DNA from: Gammaproteobacteria bacterium
GTDB lineage: Bacteria > Pseudomonadota > Gammaproteobacteria > SZUA-229
NCBI GenBank assembly: GCA_036567985.1
Contig: DATCTK010000022.1
Location: forward strand, 471 to 64,470
Direction: 5' to 3'
Length of the DNA stretch: 64,000 bases
A program made the translations under genes and the position numbers. Positions 81 through 20,232 of this stretch are shown in pieces. A model generated the notes under the pieces. It was given only the letters and a program-made list of their open reading frames with translations. It made no database searches and was not told the DNA's origin. Position 1 is the first letter of the stretch, and every line of letters starts with the position of its first letter.

Positions 81-1328
81 TCACAGTTCACCTTCTAACA
101 CATCATAAAACGCTTTATCTTTTAGATTGCTGATACTCACTAAGCCACCTGTTCTGAGGCTGTTTGTTCTGATCGTGTGCCGGGTACCATCGGCAGCTTT
201 CCCCTTCATTTTGTAATTCACCCGGATAACCAGCTTACCTTTTCGGTCCTCACCTGGGGCATCAAATACATACAATACTGCGGGATCTCGCTTGTCCCAT
301 AGTATGCTTTTGGGGTTATTGATGGCGTCCGGCATGGCACGCACCAGGTCTTTTGGGATGTGCCTGCCATCCTTTGAGTCACGCAGCAGGTGCATGATCT
401 CTTTATCGGTTACTGTAATCAGTGCGGTTTTTGGTGCCTGGTCGCGCTCGACCAGGGCGCTGACTATGGACGGTTTGAGGTAGCCTACTGTCTTAATTTC
501 ACCTTGTGGCTGTTTGCGATCGAGCAGCTGATTAACCCATGGGCTGAATGCCCTGGATAGTTTAGGTGACAGTGTCTGGGCCTCATTCAAAGCCTGGTTG
601 CGTAGTGCTTCAGGCATTCTCATTACCTGCTCACCCAGCGCGGTATCTGGCCCTAGCCAGGCTTTGCCCACATTGTAATCAAAGCCGGTATCAATGCCCT
701 GTGGCACCAGGCCATAATCTTCTCCGGTTTTTCGGTTAATACGGCGCTGGTAGTTAATGGCTGGTGCCTGGCTAAGTTCCAGTTTTTCCCGACGCATTTG
801 CCTGGGTGACAGCGTGCGTGCTGTACAGCGACAGCCCCAGCCATTGGGTGGGTAGAATGTAATCCAGAAGTCGTCATCAATGGCTAGCACCAGCCCATCC
901 CATGCCTCATGTTCAGGCCTTACACGTGCATCACCCACTGTCTGGTACTGCATATAGGGTCTGGTTTCTTTAACCCGCTGAATTTGCTGCCAGCGTCCCG
1001 CCATATGAGCCGATCGCATATTGGTGTCGTAGATTACCCGTGTGCGCCAACCGCGCTTTCCCTTGTAGTTCCAGCCGTGCTTGGCCACCAGGCCATCAAA
1101 TTGCTTGCGGAACTGACCTATGCTCATGCCGTCAGATATCGCCTGGTCGACGGTATTTCTCAGGTCCATTAGCAGATCATTTTTAGTGGCACCGGCCACG
1201 GTGAAAGCCTTGGCATGCACCTCGGCATTGAGGTCATCCCAGTACTGAGTGGGTAGATTCAACTTGCCTTTAAAGAAGCTGATCGCTTCTTCAAATTTGA
1301 CAGAACCTATATCGACAGTTGTTGGCAT
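81..1328 (-). CDS. Phage head morphogenesis protein, MuF/SPP1 gp7 family, with an extra C-terminal ~140-aa domain
   Basis: 415 aa. Conserved MuF core RPEHEAWDGLVLAIDDDFWITFYPPNGWGCRCT. Lies downstream of the portal in the packaging block. The C-terminal segment (KTALITVTDKEIMHLL...GKLVIRVNYKMKGK...) is outside the usual MuF core. Confidence 0.85.
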   Translation of the reverse strand: MPTTVDIGSVKFEEAISFFKGKLNLPTQYWDDLNAEVHAKAFTVAGATKNDLLMDLRNTVDQAISDGMSIGQFRKQFDGLVAKHGWNYKGKRGWRTRVIYDTNMRSAHMAGRWQQIQRVKETRPYMQYQTVGDARVRPEHEAWDGLVLAIDDDFWITFYPPNGWGCRCTARTLSPRQMRREKLELSQAPAINYQRRINRKTGEDYGLVPQGIDTGFDYNVGKAWLGPDTALGEQVMRMPEALRNQALNEAQTLSPKLSRAFSPWVNQLLDRKQPQGEIKTVGYLKPSIVSALVERDQAPKTALITVTDKEIMHLLRDSKDGRHIPKDLVRAMPDAINNPKSILWDKRDPAVLYVFDAPGEDRKGKLVIRVNYKMKGKAADGTRHTIRTNSLRTGGLVSISNLKDKAFYDVLEGEL

Positions 1329-1532
1329 CAGAAATTAGCTTTTGTGAGTGCAGCAGGTATCGTGACGTGGGGGATAATTTTTCCAGAACAATTAAAGCCA
1401 AAAAGCGTAGTTGCTTTGCTATTACTGCCTTGGTTCAGCTGATCGGTTGCAGCCTTTGGAAAGCCATACTCTTTAATTTTTTGGTGTTGATCTCGCAATT
1501 TCATATCCTCGCTAGTCGGTATGATATAAATA

Positions 1533-1739
1533 CTATGCCTGCACACTGAGCTTCACCTCAATGGCCGCCAACAACTTATCTCGGTGTTGCTTTATTTCAA
1601 TATACTTGGCACTGATATCAGCATTCTCTTCATCCTTGCATAGTGGACATGCAGGTGGTGAGATACCTAGTTCACTCCAGTTGCCAGGGTACTCATATTT
1701 AAGCTCATGCTTTCTGCACTCGAATGTTGGATGTTTCAT
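1533..1739 (-). CDS. Small zinc-ribbon protein (hypothetical, phage moron cluster)
   Basis: 68 aa with two Cys pairs (FECRKHE... PACPLCKDEE). Follows the minus-strand gene chain. Confidence 0.4.
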   Translation of the reverse strand: MKHPTFECRKHELKYEYPGNWSELGISPPACPLCKDEENADISAKYIEIKQHRDKLLAAIEVKLSVQA

Positions 1740-1748
1740 AATTGAGGA

Positions 1749-2015
1749 TTATGGATGCTTCGTTTTAACCACTTCACTCAGCTCATCTTTACTCAGGTAC
1801 CAGAATGGTTTCTGTCCATTCGAGTACTGCATCCTGGCAAAGTCGCCTGGCCGGGTGGAGAGGTGCGCCAGCACACGGTAGATGTTGGTCATATTGCTGT
1901 TATCCCAGGCACTGCTGCGTCGTGCACGTAAGAACATGACCAGTGGGAAGCACAGTAGCCCCAGTAAAAATGCCAGTATTGCGATAATTAAACTGATCAT
2001 TAGTAATTTCTCCAA
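1749..2015 (-). CDS. Small membrane protein (hypothetical)
   Basis: 88 aa. N-terminal hydrophobic stretch LLMISLIIAILAFLLGLLCFPLVMFL. Packed between neighbouring ORFs on the same strand. Confidence 0.4.
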   Translation of the reverse strand: MEKLLMISLIIAILAFLLGLLCFPLVMFLRARRSSAWDNSNMTNIYRVLAHLSTRPGDFARMQYSNGQKPFWYLSKDELSEVVKTKHP

Positions 2016-2061
2016 TTGAGTATGAGCTTCCCAGCCCCGTATATTCTGTTGTTAGCTGGCC

Positions 2062-2337
2062 TTAGTCCGGCAGTTGGCTCCACCACTCGACGCCGCAATT
2101 TTTACAGCGGCATCTGTCATAATCACCGCCGCCGCTAAGGCCGCCATAGTCTTCATCAATAATCTCAGCATCCGCGTGTGCCCATTGTCCTGGCGCACCT
2201 TTTGGCATTGGATGGACAGAGTTGCAAAGATAACGCGTGCCGTCTTTCGGCCAGCTAACGGGCAGTTCAACCGGACGCTCGGCATCGGTGCGGTTTTCAC
2301 TGTCAGTGCTCATAGTCAATCCCCCTGTGTGTTCCAT
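2062..2337 (-). CDS. Hypothetical protein
   Basis: 91-aa ORF in the same-strand chain; contains CRCKNCG motif; no recognisable family. Confidence 0.35.
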   Translation of the reverse strand: MEHTGGLTMSTDSENRTDAERPVELPVSWPKDGTRYLCNSVHPMPKGAPGQWAHADAEIIDEDYGGLSGGGDYDRCRCKNCGVEWWSQLPD

Positions 2338-2355
2338 GCGCCGGTTAACGGCGCG

Positions 2356-2676
2356 TTAGTTGTCTAATGTTCCGCACTCTTTCGAGTACAATAAATATTC
2401 TTCAACTTTTTTCTTTTTCTTCTCAATAAAACTTTCGTCTCGGTACATTATTCCTTTATCGGTATATGTAATTCCCTTGCTTGTAGAAATTACTGATTCA
2501 TTGACCATGTCAACCATCGCCAATAGATCGTTAAATTCCTTAAAAATGCGCTCGGCATTTGATGTTGATAGGTCGCGCTGCTCGTTAATGCCGAAACGTA
2601 GAGCTTTACATAACTCTTGATGCAGCTCAGAGCATTCTTCGCCCAATATTGTTAATAGGTGTTCTTGTCTATTCAT
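2356..2676 (-). CDS. Hypothetical protein, possibly MazG-like NTP pyrophosphohydrolase fold
   Basis: 106 aa. LLTILGEECSELHQE ... EFNDLLAMVDMV resembles the EExxE/DxxD helices of small MazG-like phage proteins. Sits in a locally AT-rich stretch (2360-2520). Confidence 0.35.
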   Translation of the reverse strand: MNRQEHLLTILGEECSELHQELCKALRFGINEQRDLSTSNAERIFKEFNDLLAMVDMVNESVISTSKGITYTDKGIMYRDESFIEKKKKKVEEYLLYSKECGTLDN

Positions 2677-2854
2677 GCGCCAGCCTCCACAGCTAACAAG
2701 TTAATAAAGTTCGCTACGCTTGGACCCGCAAACAGCGCGGGCCACTTATCACAGCGTTATATTTCTCACGCATTCCACAGCGCATAAAGCAGTAACCCAA
2801 CCAGCGCCCCAAACAATGGAAAGTAATACCACTCCATCATGATAACCCCTCTTG

Positions 2855-3151
2855 TTATAGGCATTGCGTCACGTCGATGGCATACACCATCACCGGCTTG
2901 TCACCAAAATGCGGGTGAGTGATCTGCTTTTGTGGGGGATATGAAACCCACTTTCGACGTAGTGTTTTAGATTCATCCCCGCGCTTTGGATAACCCAACT
3001 TGAGATGAATCTCGTCATATGGCGCACCACGCAGACGACGTTCCCAGTAGTCATTTGCCAGCCGGTATTCTTCTGGTTTCTCACCATTAGCTATCGCATG
3101 CCAGTGCACGGCCTTCAAGTGCAGTATCAAAATACGCATAAATCTAAGCAT
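2855..3151 (-). CDS. Hypothetical protein
   Basis: 98-aa ORF in the same-strand chain between portal and F; no recognisable motifs. Confidence 0.35.
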   Translation of the reverse strand: MLRFMRILILHLKAVHWHAIANGEKPEEYRLANDYWERRLRGAPYDEIHLKLGYPKRGDESKTLRRKWVSYPPQKQITHPHFGDKPVMVYAIDVTQCL

Positions 3152-3650
3152 CCCGCCAATTCGGCCATTTATTACACATCATCTGCCCGTCGCATTCCTC
3201 ATGTATGCAGGTACACTGATCATCGTAGGTCATGTTCTCCTTGTAGCGTGCAACACAGCCACATTGAGTGCACTTTAAAAAACCTTCATCCGGCTTCGTA
3301 AATCGTACCTTCGTAATCGGACCTGAAAACTGGGAATGAACATAGTCACGGGCGGCCTTTTCAAGCGGTTCGAACATGTCTACGGTGCGGGTACAGCGGT
3401 AGTGGTTTTTATCCGTGGTAAATGCTGTGCACACGGGCTTGTTATGTTCGTCGTAGGTCCACTCATCAGGGTATGCCGGGTCATCAATGCCGAAGCTGAT
3501 GGCGCGTAAATGGATATCGCAGGCATCGATATCGCCTGTCATTTCATCAACTGACTCATTGATGCAGTGGTAGCAAAATTCGGCTTCGAAGCCAGCGCCT
3601 TCAGACTGGTTGGAGGGTCGGTATAATTTAGTCATTTCGATCGATCTCAT
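3144..3650 (-). CDS. Cys-rich hypothetical protein
   Basis: 168 aa with about 14 Cys (CYHC, CTQCGCV, CTCIHEECDG). Its start overlaps the portal stop, so it is translationally coupled. Confidence 0.45.
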   Translation of the reverse strand: MRSIEMTKLYRPSNQSEGAGFEAEFCYHCINESVDEMTGDIDACDIHLRAISFGIDDPAYPDEWTYDEHNKPVCTAFTTDKNHYRCTRTVDMFEPLEKAARDYVHSQFSGPITKVRFTKPDEGFLKCTQCGCVARYKENMTYDDQCTCIHEECDGQMMCNKWPNWRDA

Positions 3651-5142
3651 GCATGCCGTCCAGCTGTCCTGACAGTAATGCCAGGGCTGTCATCTCACCT
3701 AGGCGTTTTTCATCCATTTCCGGCGCAATGGTTTCCAGGCCATCACGGAATTCTTCAAGCGTGGCGGCCTTCTTGAGCAGGTTTTTAATGGGTTGTGCCA
3801 GATCCGCAATTAATGCATCTGCCTCGGTTGCTGCCTGTTCAGAAAACTGGTCGATAGAAGTGGTATTATCAGCCGCTGCAAACTGATGGTGCCCACCGCA
3901 GTTTGGACACTGGCTAAATTCAGCCTGTACAGGGGCTGGGGTTTTATTGGCACGGGGTAAAACAGCCTCACCATCCTGTGGCAATGGAATTTGTAAACGG
4001 TCATGTGCGAAGCTTGCAGGGATATTTACAAATTCACGGGCTGTATCCAGCACGTCTGCCCAGTCTTTCCGGGCCTCGCTCTCTTCAAAAAACTCAAACT
4101 GAGGCGCAACCGCACCGGCAAAGTTTAATTGGGTCACCCACTCAAATAACTGATTGAAGGTGTCACAGATGATCTGCCGATCGGATGCATTCACCGACTG
4201 TTCGCGCTCCCGGTGTGTTTCACTGGCAGCACGTGAACCCTGGCCCTGAATTTCAGTGGCCAATGTTTGGGAGGTAATCGCCTTTGAAAGCTCCTTGTTG
4301 CACATATTCACCAGGCGTTCATGCACCACCTCACCCGAATGTTTAGTTTCCAGCAGCTCCACTGCACCGGTATCGGGGATTGCGGCCACACCGTCTTCGA
4401 CCATGTCAGCCAGCTGATCGGCCAGCTCGTTCTGTTCTGCAAGCGGTGTGCCCTGTGGGTACTTGCCGATTGCCCAGGGAATACCGTACTTTTCACAGAA
4501 CTTCATGAAGTACTTCAGGCCATTGTGCTTAAATATATACGGCCAGAAACACGAGCTGAACACTGCAACACCATAGGGGTTTTCATAGCTGTGCATATGG
4601 CGTGTGAGTAGCCATTTCTTGTCGCCCAGCTCTTCACCCTCTGACGGATTGTTCTGCGTTAACAGACGCAGCTCATTGTCCGGTGAGAAAATAAAACGGC
4701 GATTGGGCCGGTCCACGACCTTGCCGGGTACCAGAAACTGCCCATCGCGTTGCCACACCACTTCATGCACCTGATAGCCACGAAATACGCCCTGAGCCAT
4801 ATTCCAGATGGTATCAGACCACTGCATGCCGTGAGATGGCTTACCGCTCATGATCTTCTGGCACAGTTCGAGTGCCTGGATATCCACCGCGGATTCACCC
4901 TTGGTGGTTAAACGATATTCAAAGCCCAGCAGGGATGAGCGTACTGAGCGCAGGTCACCGATTACATGGCTATCGAGCACGATGGCATCATAGACTTCCT
5001 GTGACTTACCCATTTTACGCAGTACCACATCCGGGTTGGGTAAAAACGAAAGCCCCGCATAAAAGTTGGGGTCATTTCTGCGAGTGGCTATGTCGCTTTT
5101 GAGTGTGCCCTGTGAGGCTTTTTTAATGTCTGATGTATTCAT
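3628..5142 (-). CDS. Portal protein, Mu gp29-like (DUF935)
   Basis: 504 aa, immediately downstream of TerL. N-terminal region matches the DUF935 portal architecture (NPDVVLRKMGKSQEVYDAIVLDSHV...). Confidence 0.85.
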   Translation of the reverse strand: MNTSDIKKASQGTLKSDIATRRNDPNFYAGLSFLPNPDVVLRKMGKSQEVYDAIVLDSHVIGDLRSVRSSLLGFEYRLTTKGESAVDIQALELCQKIMSGKPSHGMQWSDTIWNMAQGVFRGYQVHEVVWQRDGQFLVPGKVVDRPNRRFIFSPDNELRLLTQNNPSEGEELGDKKWLLTRHMHSYENPYGVAVFSSCFWPYIFKHNGLKYFMKFCEKYGIPWAIGKYPQGTPLAEQNELADQLADMVEDGVAAIPDTGAVELLETKHSGEVVHERLVNMCNKELSKAITSQTLATEIQGQGSRAASETHREREQSVNASDRQIICDTFNQLFEWVTQLNFAGAVAPQFEFFEESEARKDWADVLDTAREFVNIPASFAHDRLQIPLPQDGEAVLPRANKTPAPVQAEFSQCPNCGGHHQFAAADNTTSIDQFSEQAATEADALIADLAQPIKNLLKKAATLEEFRDGLETIAPEMDEKRLGEMTALALLSGQLDGMHEIDRND

Positions 5143-5144
5143 GG

Positions 5145-6905
5145 TTAATAACCTGGTATATGACGCCTGGACGAATTGCTGCGCCTGCCAGCGGTTGCAA
5201 TTTTAGGAATGCCACTGGCACGAGTTGACGCCACCATCCATAGAATGTGCAAAGCTACCAGGGCATCGAAATGGTGATGGGTTTGTTTTTCTGGCCACTC
5301 ATCCAGTTGATCTAATAACTGGGTGAGTGATGAGTGCAGCACGATTTGTGGAGATGCATCATTAATAAAGGGTTCAAGTGACTCAATGCGCACACCCATA
5401 TCGACTGATGCAGTTACACCCACCAACGGCAATGCAATGCCGTGCTCTGACAATGCCTGTGTGCGGAACTCTGTGCGCATGTACTCATAGGCATTATTGT
5501 TTTCAAAACCGATTGCCTGGCAATTGTATTCACGTTGAATCTTGATTAAATCGGCTTTCAAGGTGCTTGATAACCGTCGTTTAGATAATGCTTCAACCAC
5601 ACACAGCTGCGTGGTTTCTGTATCCCAGGCACCCACCAGTATTGCACTCGGGTCTGATGTCTGACCCTTGCCCATGGATGGGTCACAGGCACCAAAATGC
5701 ACCCAGTGGTGCTTTTTCATTACCCAAAACTTGATATCAGTGAAGACCTTGTCATCGTCACTGCGTGGGTCACCCTGCATTTCGGTACCGAACGCCCGAC
5801 GATTTTTAGCACGGGCTTTCATCAGGCCAAACAGCGAACGTACAGATGGCCATGAGACCACAGCGCCTTTGTCCATTCGCTTTTTATTCTTCAAATAGAA
5901 CTTATATGATGGCAACTCAGTTTCATCGAGCATAATACCCTTGTCATCCGCCTGCCGTTCTGCCTTGGGGTCCTGGTTGCGCATGATCTCTTCGCAACGT
6001 GCCCACAAGTCATCATGTATTGGGAATTGCTCAATCGCCTTAAAGTGATGAACCTTGTAGCCAATGGTGTTCTTAGCACGTGATATAGGGTCATCTTTAT
6101 TTAAGATGGTACCCACGCCCATGAATTTAACCGAGCCATCCGGAGGGCCAAGATAATCAATCGCTTTCTCAATCCAGTCCCAGCGGTTATCACGCTCGGT
6201 AGGGCTTTTGGCTTCTTTATCAGTGATCAGATCATCACCTAATAGAATTTTGGGGCGGCTGGCACCGTGGAATGTTCCTCGAATTGCCTGTTCCGCCCCA
6301 AAGGGTTCAATCTTCACGTTAGTTCTGGTGACAAGTTCCCCAACTTTCCAAACAGGTCCACGGCCACAGACTTCAGGAAAGTCCATGCGCAACATCGCGT
6401 TGCTTTCCAACTCTGTTTTTATCACCATCAATAACTTGGTGGGCAGCTTCGTTTCGGCACCCAGTAGAACCACGTAGTCCAGGAAAGCAGGGATTTTATC
6501 AATGCCAACAGCCGCACGTATTTCAGGGCGCTGAAGTAAGCCAAGCACAGCAATGAATACCGGTCCCACCTTGGTGAGCAGGGACGATTTCGCCTCGCCA
6601 CGCGGAGCGACCCAGAATTGTTTACTACCGGCTTCCTGCGCCAGGGTAGATGGAAAGGTTCGGCAAAAATGTGCCTGAAATGAGGATGACTCACCTCGAA
6701 TGTGATGAGGAAAGTAAGTGTAAGCAAAGAATGTAAAATCAAGATTAAGCACCCTTTTTCTGCGTTCGGATACGGCTTGCGGACTATCATCCAGACCCGC
6801 TGCAAAGGCTTCGATAGATTGACGTAACCCGACCTGTAACTCAGCCAGCTCATTTAAGAATTCACGTTCATGCATTGGAAAGCACCTTGCTGATATGCTG
6901 TCCAA
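5145..6905 (-). CDS. Terminase large subunit
   Basis: 586 aa. N-terminal ATPase with PRGEAKSS Walker-A-like motif. C-terminal nuclease region (FGACDPSMGKGQTSDPSAILV). Positioned between small terminase and portal. Confidence 0.85.
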   Translation of the reverse strand: MDSISARCFPMHEREFLNELAELQVGLRQSIEAFAAGLDDSPQAVSERRKRVLNLDFTFFAYTYFPHHIRGESSSFQAHFCRTFPSTLAQEAGSKQFWVAPRGEAKSSLLTKVGPVFIAVLGLLQRPEIRAAVGIDKIPAFLDYVVLLGAETKLPTKLLMVIKTELESNAMLRMDFPEVCGRGPVWKVGELVTRTNVKIEPFGAEQAIRGTFHGASRPKILLGDDLITDKEAKSPTERDNRWDWIEKAIDYLGPPDGSVKFMGVGTILNKDDPISRAKNTIGYKVHHFKAIEQFPIHDDLWARCEEIMRNQDPKAERQADDKGIMLDETELPSYKFYLKNKKRMDKGAVVSWPSVRSLFGLMKARAKNRRAFGTEMQGDPRSDDDKVFTDIKFWVMKKHHWVHFGACDPSMGKGQTSDPSAILVGAWDTETTQLCVVEALSKRRLSSTLKADLIKIQREYNCQAIGFENNNAYEYMRTEFRTQALSEHGIALPLVGVTASVDMGVRIESLEPFINDASPQIVLHSSLTQLLDQLDEWPEKQTHHHFDALVALHILWMVASTRASGIPKIATAGRRSNSSRRHIPGY

Positions 6906-7371
6906 ATGGTTCGAGAATCAATACAAACCGTTCAAGGTCATGCGGTGAGTGCTTGCGAATGTATTTAGCCAGCTCTTCAAGTACTTCCATGGCGATAGAG
7001 AGTTGCGCAATTTTGGGGTTAGAGTTACCGGCCGCCTTCATGGTTTTAGTGTATGCATCAGATAAGCGACTGATCACTTCAGCCTTTTGAATAGCCGTGA
7101 AGTCACCTTCTTTCAACTCCGTGATAGTAGTTTGAAACAGGCGTGCAAAGTCTTCGAGTACTTCTGCAGTCATTTCACCGACACCGCCACCGGCCATGCG
7201 TGATGCGGCGCGGGCCTTGTCCCAGTCATCGCCATCATTCTCGGCTTTCTTTTTCCAGCTGCGAGCCGTCTGGTAATTTATATTGTGCAGCTGTGCAGCA
7301 TGCTGTAATGATTTTTTGTCATACACATAAGAACGTCTTACAGCCAGCTTTGTCTCTTCAGAATGGGCCAC
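6868..7371 (-). CDS. Terminase small subunit-like protein, Mu gp27-like
   Basis: 167 aa with an N-terminal HTH-like region (KKSLQHAAQLHNINYQTARSWKKK). Directly upstream of, and overlapping, TerL. Confidence 0.6.
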   Translation of the reverse strand: MAHSEETKLAVRRSYVYDKKSLQHAAQLHNINYQTARSWKKKAENDGDDWDKARAASRMAGGGVGEMTAEVLEDFARLFQTTITELKEGDFTAIQKAEVISRLSDAYTKTMKAAGNSNPKIAQLSIAMEVLEELAKYIRKHSPHDLERFVLILEPFGQHISKVLSNA

Positions 7372-7374
7372 CGA

Positions 7375-7602
7375 TCAACTCACCACGCCCTTGAAGGTTT
7401 CTTTTAAAAAGTACAGTGCGGTCGCCATTACGCCGCCAGACACCATGCCATTGCGTGCACCATTCATTTCTGCTTTACGTAAGCGTGAATCCATACTGGA
7501 TCTGGCCTCATGCTCTTTTTCCTGATTTTCGAGTATGGAATCCACCTTACCTTCCAACTGTCCAATCGCGCGGTGTAAATCATTAATATCAGCCATGCTC
7601 AA
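7375..7602 (-). CDS. Hypothetical coiled-coil protein with C-terminal hydrophobic segment (possible lysis accessory protein)
   Basis: 75 aa. C-terminal GMVSGGVMATALYFL hydrophobic tail. Sits in the lysis/packaging junction. Confidence 0.35.
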   Translation of the reverse strand: MSMADINDLHRAIGQLEGKVDSILENQEKEHEARSSMDSRLRKAEMNGARNGMVSGGVMATALYFLKETFKGVVS

Positions 7603-7835
7603 GCCTTACCCTTGTTTTTAATTTCCAGAATGTTTTCACAATCAACACACCGTACACAGGTAGGTACGGTTTCAATGCGTTGCTTTGGAATCGGCTCTTC
7701 GCACTCTTTACAACAACGAGAACCATCAATAATTAAGGGTGACTCAACAGGCCGAAATTTGTGGGCATTGAGAATGCGCTCACGCTCCTGTTCTTCGTGG
7801 TGAGTAGCGACATCACTAGGATCGGGTATACGCAT
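7599..7835 (-). CDS. TraR/DksA-family C4 zinc-finger protein
   Basis: 78 aa with CCKEC...CVRCVDC four-Cys arrangement at the C-terminus, typical of phage TraR/DksA-like proteins. Confidence 0.65.
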   Translation of the reverse strand: MRIPDPSDVATHHEEQERERILNAHKFRPVESPLIIDGSRCCKECEEPIPKQRIETVPTCVRCVDCENILEIKNKGKA

Positions 7836-7837
7836 AC

Positions 7838-8997: not shown

Positions 8998-9012
8998 GAA
9001 TTATGGAAGGGG

Positions 9013-9042
9013 CAAAAATAAGGGGAGACAAGTGTCTCCCCG
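9013..9042 (-). terminator. Palindrome GGGGAGACAAGTGTCTCCCC with T-tract on the minus strand (intrinsic terminator after the Mor-family gene and/or late-promoter operator)
   Basis: Perfect 8-bp stem at 9023-9042, preceded on the plus strand by AAAAATAA. The same stem sequence recurs at 18954-18986. Confidence 0.55.
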
Positions 9043-9072
9043 GAAGTGTTACAGCCAGTATTGAGAGTTGCA

Positions 9073-9913: not shown

Positions 9914-9915
9914 GG

Positions 9916-10293: not shown

Positions 10294-10303
10294 GATATGC
10301 TTC

Positions 10304-10936: not shown

Positions 10937-10965
10937 GTCTATCTCACTTTAAAGTTGGTTTAAAA

Positions 10966-11819: not shown

Positions 11820-12898
11820 TTTCTCCTTTTAATCGGGCGTTCAAAGCCCAGCAGTTGCTCACCCACCTGGTAAATCATATTCGCCGTTAGTTCCTTGCCC
11901 TTACGCAGGCCATAATCACGCACGCCAGTGATTAAGCTGTGTGCGAGTACACGTGCGGACCCGTCGCACATTTCATATAAGGCACGGTGGATATCCGGGG
12001 TCAGTTCGGCTTCGTCCATCAGCGCCGCTTCAACGATGGCTTTGGCATCTTTATCGGTAATGCCACGAATCACCGGTGGCCAGTAGAGAATGCGTGACGA
12101 TATCTGCCCAAAGCGTCCGCGTGGGTCGCGAATCATCGGCTGCAGCATTTCCGTACCTGACAGCACCACGCCCACCTTGGCGATATCCGATATGCGACGA
12201 ATGTATTCAAGCGTTTGCGTGTTTGTCTTTTCCGCCTCATCCAGAATGATCAGTTTGTCGCTGCCCGTTAAAGTTGCGATGATGGCTTCCATCATGTCGC
12301 TCTTGGTGCCACGTGCCCACTTGTGGCTTTTGTGAACGATGGCATTGGTTTTTTCCACCAGCTCGCGCAGCAAAACGGTGGCATTCATGTCGGGCGTAGC
12401 CTCAACCAATACCGTATTGGGGTGCAGCTCGGCATAACGCTTCAGTGACTTGGTTTTACCGGTACCTACAAAGGCACTGACAACTGAGAAGCTGCGGTAT
12501 TTATGTGCACGTTTACAGGCAGCATTCACTGCGACATAAATAGAGGTTTCAACAAACGGGTTATCACCAATCTTTTCGTTTTCCCGCTCACTCTGACGTT
12601 CTATTGCATCAATCACCTTATTCAGGCGATCGGTGGGTGAGCTGGGATACTTGCCTCGAATAATCGCATTGAGCGTGGTCTGGCCCTGTGAGGATGCGCG
12701 GGCAAGCTTTGTTTGCGAGCGCTTATTGTCGTGCTCATGCTCCTGGCCTTCGTTCAGCCAGTTCACAATTTGTATTACCTTGCGTTTGTCGTCTTCGGTA
12801 TACGCATCGGTGTAAGCCTCGGGTAGTTCAGCAATGCATTGTGTGAACGTGTTCGGTGAACTCATAGTTATATGTCTCTCATGGCTGTTGTTATTCAA
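11816..12898 (-). CDS. Mu B-like AAA+ DNA transposition ATPase (target-DNA activator)
   Basis: 360 aa. Walker A VGTGKTKS and Walker B IILDEAE. Immediately downstream of transposase A. Confidence 0.85.
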   Translation of the reverse strand: MNNNSHERHITMSSPNTFTQCIAELPEAYTDAYTEDDKRKVIQIVNWLNEGQEHEHDNKRSQTKLARASSQGQTTLNAIIRGKYPSSPTDRLNKVIDAIERQSERENEKIGDNPFVETSIYVAVNAACKRAHKYRSFSVVSAFVGTGKTKSLKRYAELHPNTVLVEATPDMNATVLLRELVEKTNAIVHKSHKWARGTKSDMMEAIIATLTGSDKLIILDEAEKTNTQTLEYIRRISDIAKVGVVLSGTEMLQPMIRDPRGRFGQISSRILYWPPVIRGITDKDAKAIVEAALMDEAELTPDIHRALYEMCDGSARVLAHSLITGVRDYGLRKGKELTANMIYQVGEQLLGFERPIKRRK

Positions 12899-14560
12899 TT
12901 AGTCGTAACTGGTATCAAAAATATCAATACTGCAATCTTCGGTGTTTAATTCATCCATATCCTCCATTGTGTTGAATAAGGGTTCACTCTCATGCTGCTC
13001 CAGCCCTGCTGGCAGGTTGTCTGAATCCAGCTCATGTGAGATAGCCTCGTGGTCCACAAGCAGTTTTGCCTGGGCGCGTTTTTCATCAGCGTGCTTTTCA
13101 AGGCGTTTTATTTGACCTTTCAGTCTGTTCTGCTGCATGTCTTCCATGCGACTTTCACTTACATAAGCCGTGCGCTGTGTGATTTCCGCATCGCAAATCA
13201 GGCGTTCATCTTTAGTGAGTACTCGCACCATTGAATCGTTATGCAAATCGTATTCAACATGTACCTGCTGTGTGTTAAAACGAATTAACTCGGGGTGACG
13301 GTATTCACGGTTGAATAATGTAATGGAGCCACGTCGAATGGTGCGCTCAATGCGTGGGCGCACAATAGCCTCAGATGTCATGTGCACTGGCACACGCTCC
13401 AGCTGTTTCCACAGGCTGGCTGGTGTTGCACCGTTAAGTGCCTTGTGAGGCCGGTTGTTGTAGAAGTTGATAAATTCTTTCAGGCCGTCCAGGTAGGTTT
13501 GCAAACTGGGCAGTGGCTTTTTCCCTGACTTTGCATCGGTCAATACTTTTTTAATGGAATCCTGTGCCATATCGTGGCCGCAATATGAATGAAAGGTTTT
13601 ATCGAACTTGTCGCGCAGTGTTCTAAACCAGCGTTCCACCTGACCTTTACCCTTCGGGTTGCCGGGTATTGAGAACATCACGTTCAAATCAAAACGTGAA
13701 TAAAAGCCGGTCGATTCATCATGCATCATCTTGCTGCGAAAGCCCGAACCATTGTCAATGTGCAATGCGGCTGGCACATGATCATGGCTGATTAATGCAT
13801 GGCTTAATGAAAACAGTGTGGAATAACTCGATTCTGCAACGCTCATATACCAGCCCGCAATGTATCGACTGCGCACATCAATCCATACCGTGAGTTCTGG
13901 CCGCCATGGGTTACCAGTTAGTGGGTGTGCCAGGTACGCATCAATGGTGTGACCATCGCCCTGGTAAATACCGCCCACCGGAATGCACTCTGTGTCACGT
14001 ACCCGTGAAGGGGTTTGCGTGTCATGATATAACTTGCTGCCCATGCGGCGCTTCTCACGCACATCATGTGGCAGGCTTTTTATAAAGCGGCTTACCCGGC
14101 TATAGGTTGCATCGCTAAAACCTTCCTGTTGCAGCAGCTCGGCCACGGTGGACATCGCCAGCTTTTGTGGTTGCTGGTACCAGTACAATGCACGAGCCTC
14201 CCAGCTGCCCAGCTTCCGCTGACGGCCTTTATGCGCAGACACCAGCCCATTCACACCATCTTCACTGTACGCCTTTACCCAGCGAGCAACCGTGGGGTGG
14301 CTGGGTGGTTTACCTTTACTGCCCAGGTCATCCGCTAACTTCTGCAACTCATCTGATGCGGCCTGGCACTTGATAGATACCAGCAGGTTTTCAATGGCGG
14401 CTCTTTGCGACACCCCGCGCTGTATATCATTTAATATTGGCTGTATAAATTGCTCACGTGTGCGTGCAAGTCTTCGCTTTGCCTGGGGCAACTTATCAAA
14501 CTCTGTTGTCAGTTGATCAGGCACAATGCCGTACTCTGGTCTGATGGCGACAACATTCAT
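12899..14560 (-). CDS. DDE transposase, Mu A / rve integrase-core family
   Basis: 553 aa. Integrase core with WIDVRSRYIAGWY ... HIDNGSGFRS ... catalytic pattern; N-terminal HTH/winged-helix region. Paired with the B ATPase. Confidence 0.9.
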   Translation of the reverse strand: MNVVAIRPEYGIVPDQLTTEFDKLPQAKRRLARTREQFIQPILNDIQRGVSQRAAIENLLVSIKCQAASDELQKLADDLGSKGKPPSHPTVARWVKAYSEDGVNGLVSAHKGRQRKLGSWEARALYWYQQPQKLAMSTVAELLQQEGFSDATYSRVSRFIKSLPHDVREKRRMGSKLYHDTQTPSRVRDTECIPVGGIYQGDGHTIDAYLAHPLTGNPWRPELTVWIDVRSRYIAGWYMSVAESSYSTLFSLSHALISHDHVPAALHIDNGSGFRSKMMHDESTGFYSRFDLNVMFSIPGNPKGKGQVERWFRTLRDKFDKTFHSYCGHDMAQDSIKKVLTDAKSGKKPLPSLQTYLDGLKEFINFYNNRPHKALNGATPASLWKQLERVPVHMTSEAIVRPRIERTIRRGSITLFNREYRHPELIRFNTQQVHVEYDLHNDSMVRVLTKDERLICDAEITQRTAYVSESRMEDMQQNRLKGQIKRLEKHADEKRAQAKLLVDHEAISHELDSDNLPAGLEQHESEPLFNTMEDMDELNTEDCSIDIFDTSYD

Positions 14561-15576
14561 TTGCCACCACCTTTAGCTGGTCGTCCACGGCCTCGTGGCT
14601 TCTGCATATCTCGCTGGTTTTTCCGAATTACCGCTTCATGCGTATGCTGCTCTATCAACAGTTCGCGTTCATTAACGGCTGCAGTGATTTCATTTGGCTC
14701 AAGATAATAGGCAGGCGATACCGGACCGGTAACTTCCTCAGGCAAGGTGTCATCGAGCTCCTTTAAAAACTTTTCTGAGCGTGCAATGACACCGCGCAGG
14801 TTGTGATACAAACTGGTGGCAGCTATGTTCCAGTTGCGCGCGTGTTCGGTGTCGTTGCCTTTCAGGCGGCCCAGGTCTTCCAGCTGCTGATACATCTTCT
14901 CCATATCATCGAAACACAATGATGCTTTATCCATCAGTGCGGTTGACTCATGGCGAATGGTTTCAACAAATTCCGGGTAGGTGCTGTTCCGCTGCTTGTT
15001 GCTGAGCTGCTTTTTGAGTTCGGTGTTCTCAATCGTTGCGGTTTCTAGCCGCTTGTCCAGGGTATTGAGTTTCTTTTCCAGTTCCGATTCCGGGCGGCTT
15101 TCCTTGATGCGGCTTTGTAATTCACGAAGGGGTTCGGTTTGTGCATCTTCAATGGTGATGCCGCGCACCATGGCGCCCTCGAAAAACTGGCCCAGTTCGT
15201 CATCAGTCCATGAACACATTAGCTCCAACTTGCTCGCTTCTATTACAGCGAGTGCGGGCCATACGTTAGCCGGTGTGCGGCAGGCAAGGCTGTACAGGCT
15301 GATGCTTTTGCTGGCAGTGCGTGGCGCTATGGTTTCTTTTGCTAAACCGGCCAAATAATTACCGTGACCTAGCTCCTCTTTCAGGCCATATAGGGCATAG
15401 CCCTGATACAGCTTACCCGCCAGCGCCAGTTTTCCGCCCTGACCTGCAGCATTGAAACGTTTGGCCGGTGTGAGGTTAGGTATGTCCTTCACGGGCACGA
15501 GTTGTATCTTGTTAATGAAATCCGCTATGTGCCTGGGTGGCGTTGTCAGTTCTTTGTTGCTCATCGTAAACCCCAT
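14557..15576 (-). CDS. Hypothetical protein with C-terminal AT-hook (possibly DUF3102-like)
   Basis: 339 aa. Central coiled coil. C-terminal KPRGRGRPAKGGGK AT-hook. HGNYLAGL resembles the DUF3102 core. Overlaps the transposase start by 4 bp. Confidence 0.4.
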   Translation of the reverse strand: MGFTMSNKELTTPPRHIADFINKIQLVPVKDIPNLTPAKRFNAAGQGGKLALAGKLYQGYALYGLKEELGHGNYLAGLAKETIAPRTASKSISLYSLACRTPANVWPALAVIEASKLELMCSWTDDELGQFFEGAMVRGITIEDAQTEPLRELQSRIKESRPESELEKKLNTLDKRLETATIENTELKKQLSNKQRNSTYPEFVETIRHESTALMDKASLCFDDMEKMYQQLEDLGRLKGNDTEHARNWNIAATSLYHNLRGVIARSEKFLKELDDTLPEEVTGPVSPAYYLEPNEITAAVNERELLIEQHTHEAVIRKNQRDMQKPRGRGRPAKGGGK

Positions 15577-15757
15577 AATTAAAAAGTAAGACAGTTGTCT
15601 AAATCGGCATGCGCAGGCCGATTTGAATTAAAACCAGATAGAAACTTCAAGCCAGAAACCAGCCAGCAGTGCCAGCACAGCCCAGACCCTCCAGTTGATT
15701 CGTGAATAGTTAATGGGTGGTAGTGGTGGTACGTGTTTCATTGTTCTCAATCCTTCT

Positions 15758-16249
15758 TTAAATGCCCGTGTTACGGGGGTGTAATATCTGTTCAAGCCGC
15801 TTGATATCGCGCCGGGCTTTTGCCTGGTCCAGCAGCTTGCTGCCCAGCTCGGCCACCAGCTGGTCGCGGCCATCAACCAGGTCGTAACCAAGTGGTTGTA
15901 CTAATGCCAGCAACGGCACCAGCGACTGGGTGGCCCAGCAAAACGCTGGCAGGTAGCGGGCTGGCATGTTGTGGTATTCCTTGCTGTGGGCTGTCCAGGC
16001 ATTGAGCTGTCGCAGGGTTATCTGCTCTCGCGTGTCCGCTTCTGGCAGGCACATGTTCATGCGCTCCACGATGCGTTCACGGCTATACCCCAGCTGGCGG
16101 GCTTCACGGATCGCATGCTTGGTGGCCGCCATCAGCTCCAGGTTAATGTCCAGATCCTGTGCATCACGGGCCTCCAGTGCGGTGGTTTCGGCCAGTTGCT
16201 GGAACATATCGGGCTGAATACTGGTAAAAGGTTTTGTGCTTTTAGCCAT
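15758..16249 (-). CDS. Hypothetical early protein
   Basis: 163-aa ORF in the ner-to-A gene chain; no recognisable motifs. Confidence 0.4.
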   Translation of the reverse strand: MAKSTKPFTSIQPDMFQQLAETTALEARDAQDLDINLELMAATKHAIREARQLGYSRERIVERMNMCLPEADTREQITLRQLNAWTAHSKEYHNMPARYLPAFCWATQSLVPLLALVQPLGYDLVDGRDQLVAELGSKLLDQAKARRDIKRLEQILHPRNTGI

Positions 16250-16799
16250 TAACCGGATCCTCGGCGGGTGTTAGGCTGGTGTCGTCGTTAGCATTTGCCT
16301 GACGTGCCTTTTTAGATAATGGGCGGTGCGGCCACAGTGGGCAGCCGAAGTAACTACCGGGCTGGTTAAGCTTTCTATCTAATGGGAACACGTTGTTGCA
16401 GTTGTCTATAAACTGGCGGTTGTTGCCCGTGCATTCGGCGCACTTGGCATTAACCGCTTTGCGGCGTGATTTAGGCTGGTTCACCACGGCCAGTTCAGTT
16501 TTTGAGCTGTAGTCAGCCAGTGCAGCCTGACGCTGTGCCTGGCCGTAATCGTCTGCAACCATGTGTTGCCAGGGCCGCAGGCTCCATAACGGGCAAGCCC
16601 AGGCGGTGCATTGCGCCACTTCTTTGCGAGGGTTGGCATCAGAACCAGCGCCCACGCATTCATAGCAGGTGGCCTTAATGGCATTGGTCAGTGAGGTCGG
16701 TGTGCGGATTGAGCGTTGAACTGGGTTGAGCTTTTCAAGTTCTCCGGTTTGACGCAGCTCCTGTTGGGCAAGCCTGGCTTTTTCGAGTGGATTGGTCAT
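16242..16799 (-). CDS. Hypothetical protein with duplicated Cys motif
   Basis: 185 aa. Two copies of C-x2-C...C...CPLW(x)RP(W) (CYECVG...CPLWSLRPW and CAECTG...CPLWPHRP). Confidence 0.45.
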   Translation of the reverse strand: MTNPLEKARLAQQELRQTGELEKLNPVQRSIRTPTSLTNAIKATCYECVGAGSDANPRKEVAQCTAWACPLWSLRPWQHMVADDYGQAQRQAALADYSSKTELAVVNQPKSRRKAVNAKCAECTGNNRQFIDNCNNVFPLDRKLNQPGSYFGCPLWPHRPLSKKARQANANDDTSLTPAEDPVNG

Positions 16800-17029
16800 G
16801 CCGCTGACCTCCGGCCGCGCCTGGGTGGCTGGCTATAGCGGCCGTCGGGAAACAGCCGGTTCAGCGGTATATTGGTGACTGCTGCGATGTGGCTGGCGAT
16901 GTTGTAAGATGCAATCTGGCCGCGAATGGTCTGGCTTACAGCATTGTGCTGTACGCCCAGTGCCTTCGCTGCCTGGCCAGGGGATGACCCGGCCTTATAT
17001 AAAGCGGCATTAATGTCTGCCCAGTGCAT
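16796..17029 (-). CDS. ner: Ner-like DNA-binding protein
   Basis: 77 aa. HTH region AAKALGVQHNAVSQTIRG... typical of Mu Ner/Nlp. Divergent from the repressor gene. Confidence 0.75.
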   Translation of the reverse strand: MHWADINAALYKAGSSPGQAAKALGVQHNAVSQTIRGQIASYNIASHIAAVTNIPLNRLFPDGRYSQPPRRGRRSAA

Positions 17030-17164
17030 GATGTGCTCCTTTATAACTAGGTGGCGACCTGGCGGGGTCGCCGTTTTTTGGTTTGATTAGATGCCTTTTG
17101 GCATGATGTGAGATGAATATAGCCTCCATACGGAGGCTTTGTCAAGCATCAATAAGGGGGCTTT
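17030..17164. promoter_or_regulatory. Divergent early/repressor control region with operator-like palindromes
   Basis: Contains the hairpin GGCGACCTGGCGGGGTCGCC followed by TTTTTT (17063-17091), and the palindromes ATGCCTTTTGGCAT and AGCCTCCATACGGAGGCT, between ner and the XRE repressor. Confidence 0.5.
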
Positions 17165-17503
17165 TTGAAAAAAGCTGAACAAGGCTCTATTGGTGAGCGT
17201 TTACGTGATTTGCGTGCTGGTATGAGCCAGAAAGAATTTGCGGAGCTGTTAGCTATCGGTCGAGCAACACTTCAGCGTTATGAAGGTAATGAGCGAAATC
17301 CAGACGCTGAACTAATAATCAAGCTTAACGTGCTGTTTGGTGCAGATCCTCTGTGGTTGCTTACAGGTAAAGAACCAGACACAGGTGGGCCAGCACTCAC
17401 CGCAAAAGAACAGCAGTTGCTGAAGGGTTACAGGCAACTGGATAATGAGAGAAGAGCGGCTATTGATGGTATGGTGCAGGCGCTGGTAAAACAGGGTAAA
17501 TAA
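17165..17503 (+). CDS. XRE-family HTH repressor (phage c/cI-like immunity repressor, no peptidase domain)
   Basis: 112 aa. HTH MSQKEFAELLAIGRATLQRYEGNER. Divergently transcribed from ner, as in Mu-like phages. Confidence 0.8.
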   Translation: MKKAEQGSIGERLRDLRAGMSQKEFAELLAIGRATLQRYEGNERNPDAELIIKLNVLFGADPLWLLTGKEPDTGGPALTAKEQQLLKGYRQLDNERRAAIDGMVQALVKQGK

Positions 17504-17507
17504 TGCA

Positions 17508-18311
17508 GTGAATTGTTTTTATGAACCAGGGTTGCCATATCCACATGTTTATTATCCTGAGCTATATGGCGTTTTTATTGGTTTTGCGAAGATACCAGGC
17601 GGTAGCATCTATTTATGCAGTTGCCATAAGTTTGCACTTTCCAGATATATAGCAAATCGTTATACCGCTAAGACATGTCTTAAAGGCCGATGGTGTGTAG
17701 TAGAAGAACAAGATTTTCCCCCGGCACTGATTGACCAATTACACACTAAAGCCGGAATGTCAGCATATGAGTTATTGCATACATTCAAATTTGCACTGCA
17801 TATTTGCCACCGCTGCAACCAGACGCAGCCACTAAATATTTATTGTCTTGCTATGTATGGTAATTTATTCAAGCAGCATTTCGGCTGGTATGTAAAAACC
17901 CACATGCTTTCATTTGGTAATGATGAAAAAAGTGCCGAGCTGAATGTCAGGGCTGCTTTTGGATTTCCGGCAACGGGCAAGCCGCATGTAACTGAAAAGA
18001 TTCTCATGGGTTACATCAAAACCATATACCCGAATAATATTGTCGAATATAGAGTAAGGCTAAAAGAGCTGGAAGGCATGGAGCTCGATATATATTTGCC
18101 TGAATTGAGGCTTGGAATTGAATACCAGGGAAAACAGCATTACAAACCAGTAGGACATTGGGGTGGTGAAGAAGCATTACGCGAGACAAAAATCAGAGAC
18201 CGCCGCAAGAAGCGATTATGCAAACAGCATGGCATTAAATTTGTTACATTTAATTACAGGCAAAAGCTTTCAATTGATTATGTAGAAGACAAACTGAGAA
18301 AGGAGAAATAA
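17508..18311 (+). CDS. Zinc-finger protein with C-terminal DUF559/Vsr-like PD-(D/E)xK endonuclease domain (candidate defence/exclusion nuclease)
   Basis: 267 aa with a GTG start 4 nt after the repressor stop. N-terminal Cys pairs (CSCH, CLKGRWC, CHRCN). C-terminal ELDIYLPELRLGIEYQGKQHY...RDRRKKRLCKQHGIKFVTFNY matches the DUF559 pattern (D..E.K core; RDxxR...G..V.RF). Strongly AT-rich compared with the flanking phage DNA. Confidence 0.6.
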   Translation: MNCFYEPGLPYPHVYYPELYGVFIGFAKIPGGSIYLCSCHKFALSRYIANRYTAKTCLKGRWCVVEEQDFPPALIDQLHTKAGMSAYELLHTFKFALHICHRCNQTQPLNIYCLAMYGNLFKQHFGWYVKTHMLSFGNDEKSAELNVRAAFGFPATGKPHVTEKILMGYIKTIYPNNIVEYRVRLKELEGMELDIYLPELRLGIEYQGKQHYKPVGHWGGEEALRETKIRDRRKKRLCKQHGIKFVTFNYRQKLSIDYVEDKLRKEK

Positions 18312-18312
18312 A

Positions 18313-18504
18313 ATGCCAATCTTTTTATTTATATGTGCGGTACTGGTGCTCCTCTGGAGCATGTTGATGTATATGGGGTCGACAACCGCGTTCCATGAGA
18401 TACAGGCCAGCATTATTTTCATGACGTCTGCACTGTTGTTTACAGGTGCCGCCATTATCGAGGCCGTAAATAAGTTGCAAAACAGTATCAAACAAAAGGG
18501 CTAA
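18313..18504 (+). CDS. Small two-TM membrane protein, co-operonic with the nuclease
   Basis: 63 aa with strong RBS AAGGAGAAATAAAATG. Two hydrophobic helices (IFLFICAVLVLLWSMLMYM; IIFMTSALLFTGAAII). Confidence 0.55.
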   Translation: MPIFLFICAVLVLLWSMLMYMGSTTAFHEIQASIIFMTSALLFTGAAIIEAVNKLQNSIKQKG

Positions 18505-18953
18505 TCACAGCGGTCACCACTAATATTAATAATGGTGTTGTTATATGCTTCTATGTGATTTGTGGGCCCGGTTGACGACAGGGCTGATATAATGACGTAA
18601 GCTACTAATGCACCGAAGCCGAAAGCGATTGCGGTTTTTAAGGTGGTACTGTTACTGGTTTGCTGTTTCATGACGCTTTAATTATACACATGAATTAAAT
18701 CGCTTTTACCTGTCTGCAATGCGGTTGCCAGGCGGATTTTGCTGAATGCACAAAACAGCCCCTAAAACGGCGCAAAAACCCCGACCCGCACCATTGGCCC
18801 ACGATTCGCTCAAACGCGTCTTAGAAATCGCTTTGCCCTATACCCAAAACAAGCAAAAAAAGTGACTTGAATGCTGTTAAAGGTGTGATTAGTGGATATT
18901 CCATTGCGAGCGGTTAAAACCTGATGTAACCTTGCAATTACACCACCACCCAG

Positions 18954-18986
18954 AAGAGGGGAGACAAAAGTCTCCCCTCTTTTTTT
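18954..18986 (+). terminator. Palindrome AGAGGGGAGAC-AAAA-GTCTCCCCTCT plus T7 (intrinsic terminator ending the repressor operon and/or late-promoter element)
   Basis: 11-bp stem, 4-nt loop, TTTTTTT tail. Stem core is identical to the 9023-9042 palindrome. Lies 9 bp upstream of the protease ATG. Confidence 0.6.
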
Positions 18987-18994
18987 ATGCCTGC

Positions 18995-20173
18995 ATGGCA
19001 CACACTCTCGCCATGCCAAATTCAAACACACACATCGACTTCAAAGGTTTCGGCGACTGGATAGAACTGTTTCGCGCAGGCGAACAAACCTCCAGCGACG
19101 GCACTACCCGCAATTTCACCCAGGCAGATCTCGATCAGATGGTGGCCAACCATACCCCGGCCCCCATGGTTGTGGGGCATCCTAAGGTAGATGCACCAGC
19201 CTATGGCTGGTCACAGGCACTCAAGCGTGATGGTGACACTTTACTGGGTAAGTTTAGCGATGTAGACGATGCCTTCAGTGAAATGGTGGAGAAGAAGCGA
19301 TTCCCGAACCGTTCTATTCGTATTGGCAAAAACGATAACGGCTGGTACCTGAAGCACGTTGGCTGGCTTGGCGCGGCTGCGCCTGCCGTGGAAGGTCTGA
19401 AGCCGGTGCAGTTTAACAATGCCGACGATGAAGCATACGACTTTGTAAGCGATGCCTACACCACCAGCAGCATTGTGCGCACGTTCCGACGCCTGCGTGA
19501 TTTCATTGTTGACAAATTCGACCTGGAAACAGCCGACCAGGTAATTCCCGATTACACCCTCGAAAGCCTGGAACAAATTGCAGCCGATCAGCGCAGCGAA
19601 CCAGATGATTCCCACTTTAATCAACCCAACAACGGAGACACAGCCGTGCCGAAAGAATATACCGATGAGCAGATTGAACAAATCCGCAAAGACGCAGCGG
19701 ACGAAGCGACCGCCCAGTTCAGCAGTGAAAACGACACACTGAAAAAACAGCTGGCCGATGCCAACAGCGCCAAAACAGCGATTGAGTTCCAGGCATTTGC
19801 TGATGATCTGCAAGATGCAGGCAAGCTTACACCGGCTTTGGCTACTGGCTTTGTTGAGTTTATGCAGGCACTGGCCGCTGCACCCGTAGAGCTGGAATTC
19901 AGCCAGGGCGAAGGTGATGCCAAAACCGCGATTAAAAAATCGCCCATCGACTGGTTCAAGGAATTTGCCCAGCAGCTGCCTAAGCAGGTGGATATGGGTG
20001 AGTCGGCTGCCGGTGGCAATGTCGACACAGTGGATGCCGCTGCGCAATTTAATGCACCAGCGGGTGCGGTGGTAGACCCTGAGCGCCTGGCACTGGATAA
20101 AAAGGCCCAGGAATACGCCCGTGTAAACAATGTTGATTACGTTGAAGCGGTGATAGCCGTCAGCAACGGTTAA
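18995..20173 (+). CDS. Head maturation protease / scaffold, Mu I-like
   Basis: About 392 aa from the Met after the hairpin (the track ORF start lies inside the hairpin). N-terminal protease-like region, C-terminal acidic/Ala-rich scaffold-like region. Upstream of the capsid gene. Confidence 0.65.
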   Translation: MAHTLAMPNSNTHIDFKGFGDWIELFRAGEQTSSDGTTRNFTQADLDQMVANHTPAPMVVGHPKVDAPAYGWSQALKRDGDTLLGKFSDVDDAFSEMVEKKRFPNRSIRIGKNDNGWYLKHVGWLGAAAPAVEGLKPVQFNNADDEAYDFVSDAYTTSSIVRTFRRLRDFIVDKFDLETADQVIPDYTLESLEQIAADQRSEPDDSHFNQPNNGDTAVPKEYTDEQIEQIRKDAADEATAQFSSENDTLKKQLADANSAKTAIEFQAFADDLQDAGKLTPALATGFVEFMQALAAAPVELEFSQGEGDAKTAIKKSPIDWFKEFAQQLPKQVDMGESAAGGNVDTVDAAAQFNAPAGAVVDPERLALDKKAQEYARVNNVDYVEAVIAVSNG

Positions 20174-20232
20174 TTGCCAGGGTTAATCGAAACGGTTAAT
20201 TCAATCACTCATATATATAGAAGGTAAACGCT

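Follow-up and report, generated by a model that had tools for sequence, protein, structure and literature searches.

The DNA analysed here, referred to as the window, is a stretch of 64,000 nucleotides (nt) from a metagenome-assembled genome (MAG) of a gammaproteobacterium (SZUA-229; GenBank assembly GCA_036567985.1, contig DATCTK010000022.1, positions 471 to 64,470 of the forward strand). Its left part, at least 37.3 kb, is occupied by a transposable prophage of the Mu type, for which a genome of about 36-40 kb is expected. The genes are arranged in two opposed arms: everything from ner (17029) down to F (81) lies on the minus strand, and the repressor, its cargo, protease, capsid and tail genes lie on the plus strand. 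This division had been proposed in an initial annotation of the sequence, and the open reading frames (ORFs) and family searches confirm it together with the identities and strands of the individual genes. The gene set is that of a Mu-like phage (Mor/C-family activator, GemA, Mu-type portal, F, gp36, G, contractile tail), and all expected genes are present as long ORFs. Near-identity searches gave no close DNA match to the window among phage records or E. coli genomes.

The leftward arm, all on the minus strand, starts with an early operon (9916-17029) that encodes a ner-like helix-turn-helix (HTH) protein (16796-17029; HTH_35, E-value 4e-5, just below the Pfam cut-off), a regulator (15758-16249), a BcepMu gp10-like protein (14557-15576), the DDE transposase A (12899-14560; Mu-transpos_C, PF09299, with rve and DDE_2), the MuB-type AAA+ ATPase B (11816-12898; AAA_22) and a DUF3164 protein (10304-10936), plus small genes. 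GemA (9473-9913; PF06252) and a Mor-family late activator (9073-9480; PF08765, above cut-off) follow, and then a lysis block (7375-8997) of a GH108 endolysin (8404-8997), a holin-like protein with three transmembrane segments (7838-8404), a DksA/TraR zinc finger (7599-7835) and a small ORF. The packaging block (3628-7371) comprises terS (6868-7371; DUF1804 type), terL (5145-6905; phrog_38, 6e-89) and the Mu-type portal (3628-5142; PF06074, 5.5e-93). Seven small accessory ORFs (1328-3650), one of them for a MazG-like nucleoside triphosphate pyrophosphohydrolase (2356-2676), occupy the slot between portal and F; F itself (81-1328; 415 amino acids, aa; PF04233, E-value 1.6e-20), a MuF-type minor head/morphogenesis protein, is the last identified gene of this arm in the window.

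The two arms diverge from a regulatory spacer of 135 bp (17030-17164) between ner and the repressor. The strongest sigma-70-like site of the first 20 kb is directed from here into ner (17145-17116; TTGACA-18-TATATT), and a hairpin with a 12-bp stem and a T-run (17049-17076, plus strand), which could be an operator or an attenuator, lies upstream of the repressor start. The rightward arm, all on the plus strand, starts with the HTH repressor (17165-17503), which forms a group (17165-18504) with two accessory ORFs, of 267 aa with an HNH-like C-terminal region and of 63 aa; for the accessory ORFs between repressor and protease, PADLOC gave no match. Next are the head maturation protease/scaffold (to 20173; phrog_976, 1e-86), a 113-aa head protein (20233-20574), the major capsid protein (20644-21576) and the genes for head completion and the contractile tail (21648-37163; sheath, tube, tape measure, baseplate and fibre), including a 631-aa protein with a fused gp36-type adaptor (24228-26123), the Mu G homolog (26123-26566) and the sheath (27343-28797). 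The protease ORF as listed (start TTG 18932) is over-extended; since a regulatory palindrome (18958-18977, see below) falls inside it, the true start is probably ATG 18995 or 19013.

The right end of the prophage is located at 37226-37309 (plus strand), with two direct copies of CTGTCTCAT[AT]TCAAG (at 37226 and 37283), which are candidate transposase-binding sites, and a terminus ...GCTACA at 37309, followed by host DNA; a CA terminus with repeated subterminal sites is as expected for a transposable phage. The window aligns here with the tail-side end of a relative from IMG/VR and diverges immediately outside of it, which places the boundary at ...GCTACA|ACCCC. The terminal site matches the F-side ends of three further relatives (loci L009, L007 and L002). 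No inverted copy of the right-end motif was found within the 64-kb window, so the left end lies outside of it, past position 1, as the initial annotation had supposed. It would be expected to start with TG, with TGAAATGAGACA-type sites in inverted orientation at about 17-27 nt and at about 100 nt from the tip; the predicted target duplication of the window is ACCCC. In the host DNA just outside the right end (37470-37700), short GC-rich inverted repeats were observed (e.g. GTTCCCACGC...GCGTGGGAATGC and GGTGGATCCAC...GGATCCACC), which look like repetitive extragenic palindromic (REP-type) repeats.

A complete set of ends is seen in a relative with the same layout as the window and a transposase 75% identical to that of the window (IMG/VR contig UViG_3300032257_000056, locus L116). 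The element (contig positions 123-36668; 36,546 bp) has TGT...ACA termini, with the first bases TGTAGCGCGCGCCTTAAAATGAGACA... and the last bases ...TATCTCATTCCTAACATCCCCCCACA; an (A/G)AATGAGA(C/T)A motif is found, inverted, 17-26 nt from each tip, and CTTCG flanks the element on both sides as a 5-bp target duplication. The two-armed layout therefore belongs to a Mu-type unit that was transposed as a whole. The F-side ends of L009, L007, L002 and a fourth locus (L022) all stop at ...CCCCACA, with unrelated DNA beyond, e.g. type I-F cas genes in L007; the gene that precedes the end is F, a D12 Dam methylase gene after F, or terL (L022).

Directly after the stop codon of F, a conserved non-coding stretch (1-80, minus strand) runs out of the window toward the left end. 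The same block is found in L009 (11250-11340), L007 (11250-11520), L002 (11340-11610) and L097 (last ~130 nt), and the phage end follows 0.37-1.4 kb past it in the first three of these loci. Read from the F stop codon, the element is GGGGGTACGCCAC.TCCCCGTAAGAGTA ... CCCAACCGGACCGGCGATTTCCCGGTTG; in L007 and L002 it extends for about 250 nt to the D12 Dam methylase gene. One stem shows a compensatory change (CCGG/CCGG in the window vs CTGG/CCAG in relatives), and reading frames are not conserved. A search of Rfam with the conserved element gave no family; its role may be that of a regulatory RNA or structured leader of a mom-like methylase gene.

The gene order and strands of the window are shared by a series of metagenomic relatives at decreasing transposase A identity: L110 (93%), L005 and L006 (75%), L011 (68%), L012 (62%) and L013 (45%). 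For a wider survey, species-representative genomes were scanned with a transposase alignment, and the 80 loci obtained were classified by local tblastn with marker proteins; a first genome scan with Mor as the query had given no matches. Nineteen of the 80 loci are unambiguously of the window type and six more, shorter ones, are compatible with it; 30 are of the type of phages KS10 and TJ1, in which the early segment is reversed relative to the window, with 13 more compatible. One locus (L022) is split between terL and portal, and 11 were too short to classify. The carriers of the window type are almost all Gammaproteobacteria and include cultured strains: Vibrio injensis M12-1144 and Colwellia psychrerythraea ND2E both have F after the portal in the early arm, and the type is also carried by several Pseudoalteromonas species. 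The locus in Bowmanella dokdonensis JCM 30855 shows just the upstream head genes and was scored as compatible only. The KS10 type is carried mostly by Betaproteobacteria, and also by Methylomonas, Nevskia/Stagnimonas and purple sulfur bacteria. Two loci considered as candidates for the BcepMu type (L033, L048) were ruled out; PHROGs shows protease and capsid after Mor, i.e. the KS10 type with a different head module. Similarly, a portal/F split considered for L019, L038, L058 and L110 was dropped, as the matches to F on the head arm are stand-alone mini-MuF ORFs of 65-88 aa.

The initial annotation had noted that the layout is non-canonical for Mu, and this holds: genes are not collinear with the repressor alone divergent, and the geometry is that of Mu with the c-to-F segment flipped. 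Two origins had been offered for it, a distinct lineage with bidirectional late transcription, or a rearranged and possibly defective prophage. A recent inversion private to this one prophage would account for the geometry, and the left end is not visible within the window. The identical order is found, though, in independent assemblies (IMG/VR, ENA, JGI, Logan and NCBI) and in at least 19 species-level genomes, a relative is known as a complete unit that has both ends and a target duplication, and none of the expected genes is missing or short; a private, possibly defective rearrangement is thus very improbable, and the first of the two origins is favoured as a lineage trait, largely borne out by relatives that are themselves prophages known from sequence. 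A literal inversion of the c-to-F segment of Mu cannot be the origin either, in that it would bury the left attachment site (attL) inside the element, whereas the true end in these phages adjoins F or the Dam methylase gene after F. As the window stems from a MAG, a chimeric contig in which two phage halves were joined in the wrong orientation is conceivable; the ner/repressor junction and both palindrome junctions (see below) recur in many independent assemblies, isolate genomes included, which leaves an assembly artefact with a negligible likelihood.

Each of the two late blocks has at its head one copy of a 20-bp palindrome, GGGGAGAC-N4-GTCTCCCC, followed by a T-run. The first copy (9022-9041, minus strand) lies between the stop codon of mor and the endolysin start, and the second copy (18958-18977, plus strand) lies immediately upstream of the protease. 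There are exactly two copies in 64 kb, with 0 expected by chance; they face outward and flank the early segment (9041-18958; Mor...ner / repressor...cargo). The first copy is found at the equivalent site in L005, L011, L012 and L110, and the second copy in L012 and L110, with degenerate versions in L005 and L011; among 115 fetched loci, the motif occurs in close relatives only and at these two positions only. Other lineages have their own paired dyads at both positions, with a constant 4-nt spacer and often no T-run (L013, L021, L069, L070, L072, L090, L048 and TJ1), for example GGGGAA-CTCT-TTCCCC in L013, GGGGGAA-N4-TTCCCCC in L021, GGTGAA-N4-TTCACC in TJ1, and (C)TGGAA- or CGGGAA-N4-TTCC... 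in L069, L070, L072 and L090. In BcepMu, a common 19-mer is found upstream of both holin and protease.

In Mu, the activators C and Mor recognise 16-bp imperfect dyads that have their centre at -43.5, at promoters without a -35 element (PMC2582627; PMC4390567). Because the Mor and C sites of Mu are dyad-symmetric, the palindrome pairs are probably, by analogy, the sites of a single Mor-family activator. The initial annotation had noted that the junction of F and protease is where Mu has an independent late promoter (PI), and that the arrangement could for this reason be functional; the palindrome at 18958-18977 supports this point as a candidate late control element at the junction, with the activator role again drawn from Mu.

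The Mor-like protein of the window ends in ...NPTLDMFDDMMG, which is shared across relatives, and the Mor homologs at about 25 surveyed loci (nearly all) and those of KS10 and BcepMu end in Q/x-x-D/S/T-L/M-F. We take this C-terminal motif to resemble the consensus for binding of the beta clamp. [quoted passage not shown] The non-template strands of two opposed late operons are opposite strands, and phages with outward-facing late operons are natural test cases for a strand or orientation dependence of the clamp and the non-template nick (PMC12867686).

Taken together, the element is best explained as an apparently intact Mu-type transposable prophage of an uncultured gammaproteobacterium, whose two-armed order has been inherited within a widespread lineage with two self-contained late operons, and to this explanation we assign a probability of about 0.8. 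The leftward arm runs from the early genes through Mor, lysis, terminase and portal to F, and the rightward arm from the repressor through the accessory genes to protease, capsid and tail; each late operon is headed by its palindrome copy, and one Mor/C-family activator would bind both. The layout is workable because the late genes form two self-contained operons, and a flip of the segment between the palindromes would yield the KS10/TJ1 layout with both late operons undisturbed.

Several points weigh against this explanation. The left end and target duplication of the window's own prophage lie out of view, and no phage with this exact layout has been demonstrated to date to be inducible or plaque-forming. 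On the transposase tree, a rough neighbour-joining tree without support values, window-type and KS10-type loci are interleaved, and neighbouring clades carry differing head modules; exchange of modules, instead of inversion, could be the cause of some of the layout switches, and as the head modules differ between neighbouring clades, repeated inversion and module exchange are inseparable with the present data. With regard to late control, the binding of Mor is inferred by analogy, and both palindromes were flagged as terminator-like by the scan and are textbook intrinsic terminators in the clade of the window. Furthermore, as judged by the best -10-like hexamer, the palindrome has its dyad centre at about -38.5 (vs -43.5 in Mu), and a -10 is conserved at the lysis site with none clear at the protease site; a search for a -10 hexamer and a transcription start that would be consistent between the two late promoters gave none.

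An alternative is that the palindromes are intrinsic terminators or attenuators and nothing else. The layout would still be inherited, and late expression would proceed by read-through, antitermination or another operator; early transcription would end behind Mor and that of the repressor ahead of the protease, or constitutive promoters located closely upstream would have their transcripts attenuated. In each copy, a GC-rich stem of 8 bp, a loop of 4 nt and the T-run go with the terminator-like flag, a promoter-like site (TTGACA-18-GATGAT) lies about 25 nt upstream of the first copy and a TTGCGA...TGTAAC pair, conserved in L012, upstream of the second, the spacing to the -10 is unlike that of Mu, and terminators are functionally required at precisely these two sites. 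On the other hand, two terminators of one genome need not share their sequence, and the paired dyads of other lineages, with a fixed 4-nt spacer and no T-run, fit a dimeric DNA-binding protein better than an RNA hairpin. A terminator role alone is the less likely alternative. The roles of operator and terminator are mutually compatible, and under the explanation of two activator-controlled late operons, the palindromes probably also serve as terminators that halt the early and repressor transcripts before the late genes.

The palindromes flank exactly the segment whose orientation separates the window type from the KS10 type. For this reason, we raise the tentative and somewhat doubtful idea that the early segment (Mor...ner / repressor...cargo) behaves in evolution as an invertible cassette, bounded by two outward-facing palindromic late operators. 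Recombination within the two palindrome copies would flip the cassette and leave the late operons intact, the palindrome reading alike on both strands, and repeated flips may have interconverted KS10-type and window-type genomes.

Variation within the lineage was observed at several sites of the two arms. In relatives, the slot between portal and F holds one to three small genes that are unrelated to the seven of the window, and it is a hot spot for morons within the packaging operon; the slot between repressor and protease is likewise a variable cargo site, where several relatives have, in place of the 267-aa protein of the window, a stand-alone mini-MuF domain ORF of ~84 aa that matches residues 109-186 of F (6263-6517 in L110, ~7040-7231 in L019 and ~7184-7447 in L058). 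The length of F is polymorphic, with F of L116 (7968-8630) matching only about 221 residues, the N-terminal half, of the window's F, and a 228-aa cluster (P0114) giving the same short match; the mini-MuF ORFs noted above for L019, L038, L058 and L110 (65-88 aa) match F residues 95-186. Between capsid and neck (22606-26123, plus strand), the window has two large proteins, of 540 aa (no family match) and 631 aa, and in the latter the Mu gp36-type head-tail adaptor makes up the C-terminal ~180 residues only, which is an unusual fusion. The fusion versions in L005, L012 and L110 comprise 709-907 aa, and L013 has an ordinary gp36 of 137 aa, with a collagen-repeat protein after it.

It was known already that phages of this group vary in their module order and that KS10 has a split head module; new are the breadth of the present variant, the four-state scheme given below, and the paired palindromes. 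The head-assembly genes of transposable phages are thereby seen to be divisible between opposed transcription units in one more way, and the variant is common in environmental and marine Gammaproteobacteria, cultured strains included. The paired palindrome of each late block is a candidate for a control element that makes flips harmless. In genome annotation, it would be wrong to count such prophages as rearranged or degraded.

With Mu and D108, the prophage shares the gene repertoire, the internal order of the ner-to-F and protease-to-tail blocks, a Mor/C-type activator, late operons that are separate for the lysis/packaging genes and for the head genes (PMC2582627), and ends of the TG...CA type, of which the TG end is seen in relatives. 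In contrast to the window, Mu has one coding strand from which only c diverges, G is located after F, attL adjoins c and not F, and the phage employs two activators, Mor and C, and has four late promoters. The phage with the best capsid match (51%) and a similar capsid coordinate, Chromohalobacter phage YPCBV-1, was considered as an isolate with the layout of the window and was rejected, as it has the canonical Mu order.

Burkholderia phage BcepMu resembles the window in its leftward early operon, in the rightward repressor followed by an accessory gene, in the divergent ner/repressor junction, and in the common motif upstream of the lysis and protease blocks. It differs in that the repressor is followed on the tail strand by the lysis genes, terS, terL, portal, F and G, and the left end is reached directly after Mor. 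An intermediate split was observed in L022 (MAG of a Pseudomonadota, JBDKID010000006.1, 4297-20210), where the early arm continues past Mor and the lysis genes with terS and terL, and the repressor arm holds portal, F, G, protease and capsid; the phage end (...CCCCCCACA) follows about 180 nt past terL and adjoins a fragment of a host histidine kinase. The point at which the arms are split thus varies, being located after Mor in BcepMu, after terL in L022 and after F in the window. A displaced TerS-TerL-portal block in genomes with two arms has also been described for the Leptospira TG1 transposable prophages (PMC8705779); these have no sequence relationship to the window and no Mor/C gene, and are likened to it by description, not by exact gene order.

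The closest sequenced phages are Burkholderia phage KS10 and Curvibacter phage TJ1 (transposase 44% and 41% identical, F 35-39%), and records of the phage collection with a transposase more than 35% identical to that of the window are of the KS10 type only; Ralstonia YO002_1, which was also checked, is of the KS10 type as well. KS10 is a plaque-forming phage in which terminase, portal and F are split from protease, scaffold and capsid, an arrangement called unique to the authors' knowledge (PMC2628397, 2008), and in a comparison from 2021, TJ1, KS10 and Pasteurella AFS-2018a were the only Mu-like phages that could not be aligned on the position of the portal (PMC8541194). As in the window, F, portal, terL, terS and the lysis genes occupy the left end of KS10 and TJ1 and lie on the other strand from protease, capsid and tail, the homolog of Mu G is found after the adaptor and not after F, and terS is of the DUF1804 type; TJ1 also has the paired dyads that head both late blocks. 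Unlike in the window, the early operon of these two phages, from the ner-like gene through A and B to Mor, is read rightward into the protease, and their repressor has the orientation of the lysis genes. The window has all of this early segment reversed, repressor and cargo included, by which early genes, Mor, lysis and packaging become collinear as in Mu. This exact layout was found in no record among the sequenced phages examined and in no paper in the literature searched.

When the segment from c/ner to Mor is termed E and the segment from c to F is termed EP, the four layouts are related by two nested inversions: neither segment is inverted in Mu, E is inverted in BcepMu, EP is inverted in the window, and both are inverted in KS10, such that an internal flip of E would convert the KS10 type into the window type. 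The layout of the window is the fourth that completes this scheme. The prophage is a member of the transposable phages that departs from the gene orders of Mu, BcepMu and KS10, and represents a new layout variant nearest to KS10 and TJ1.

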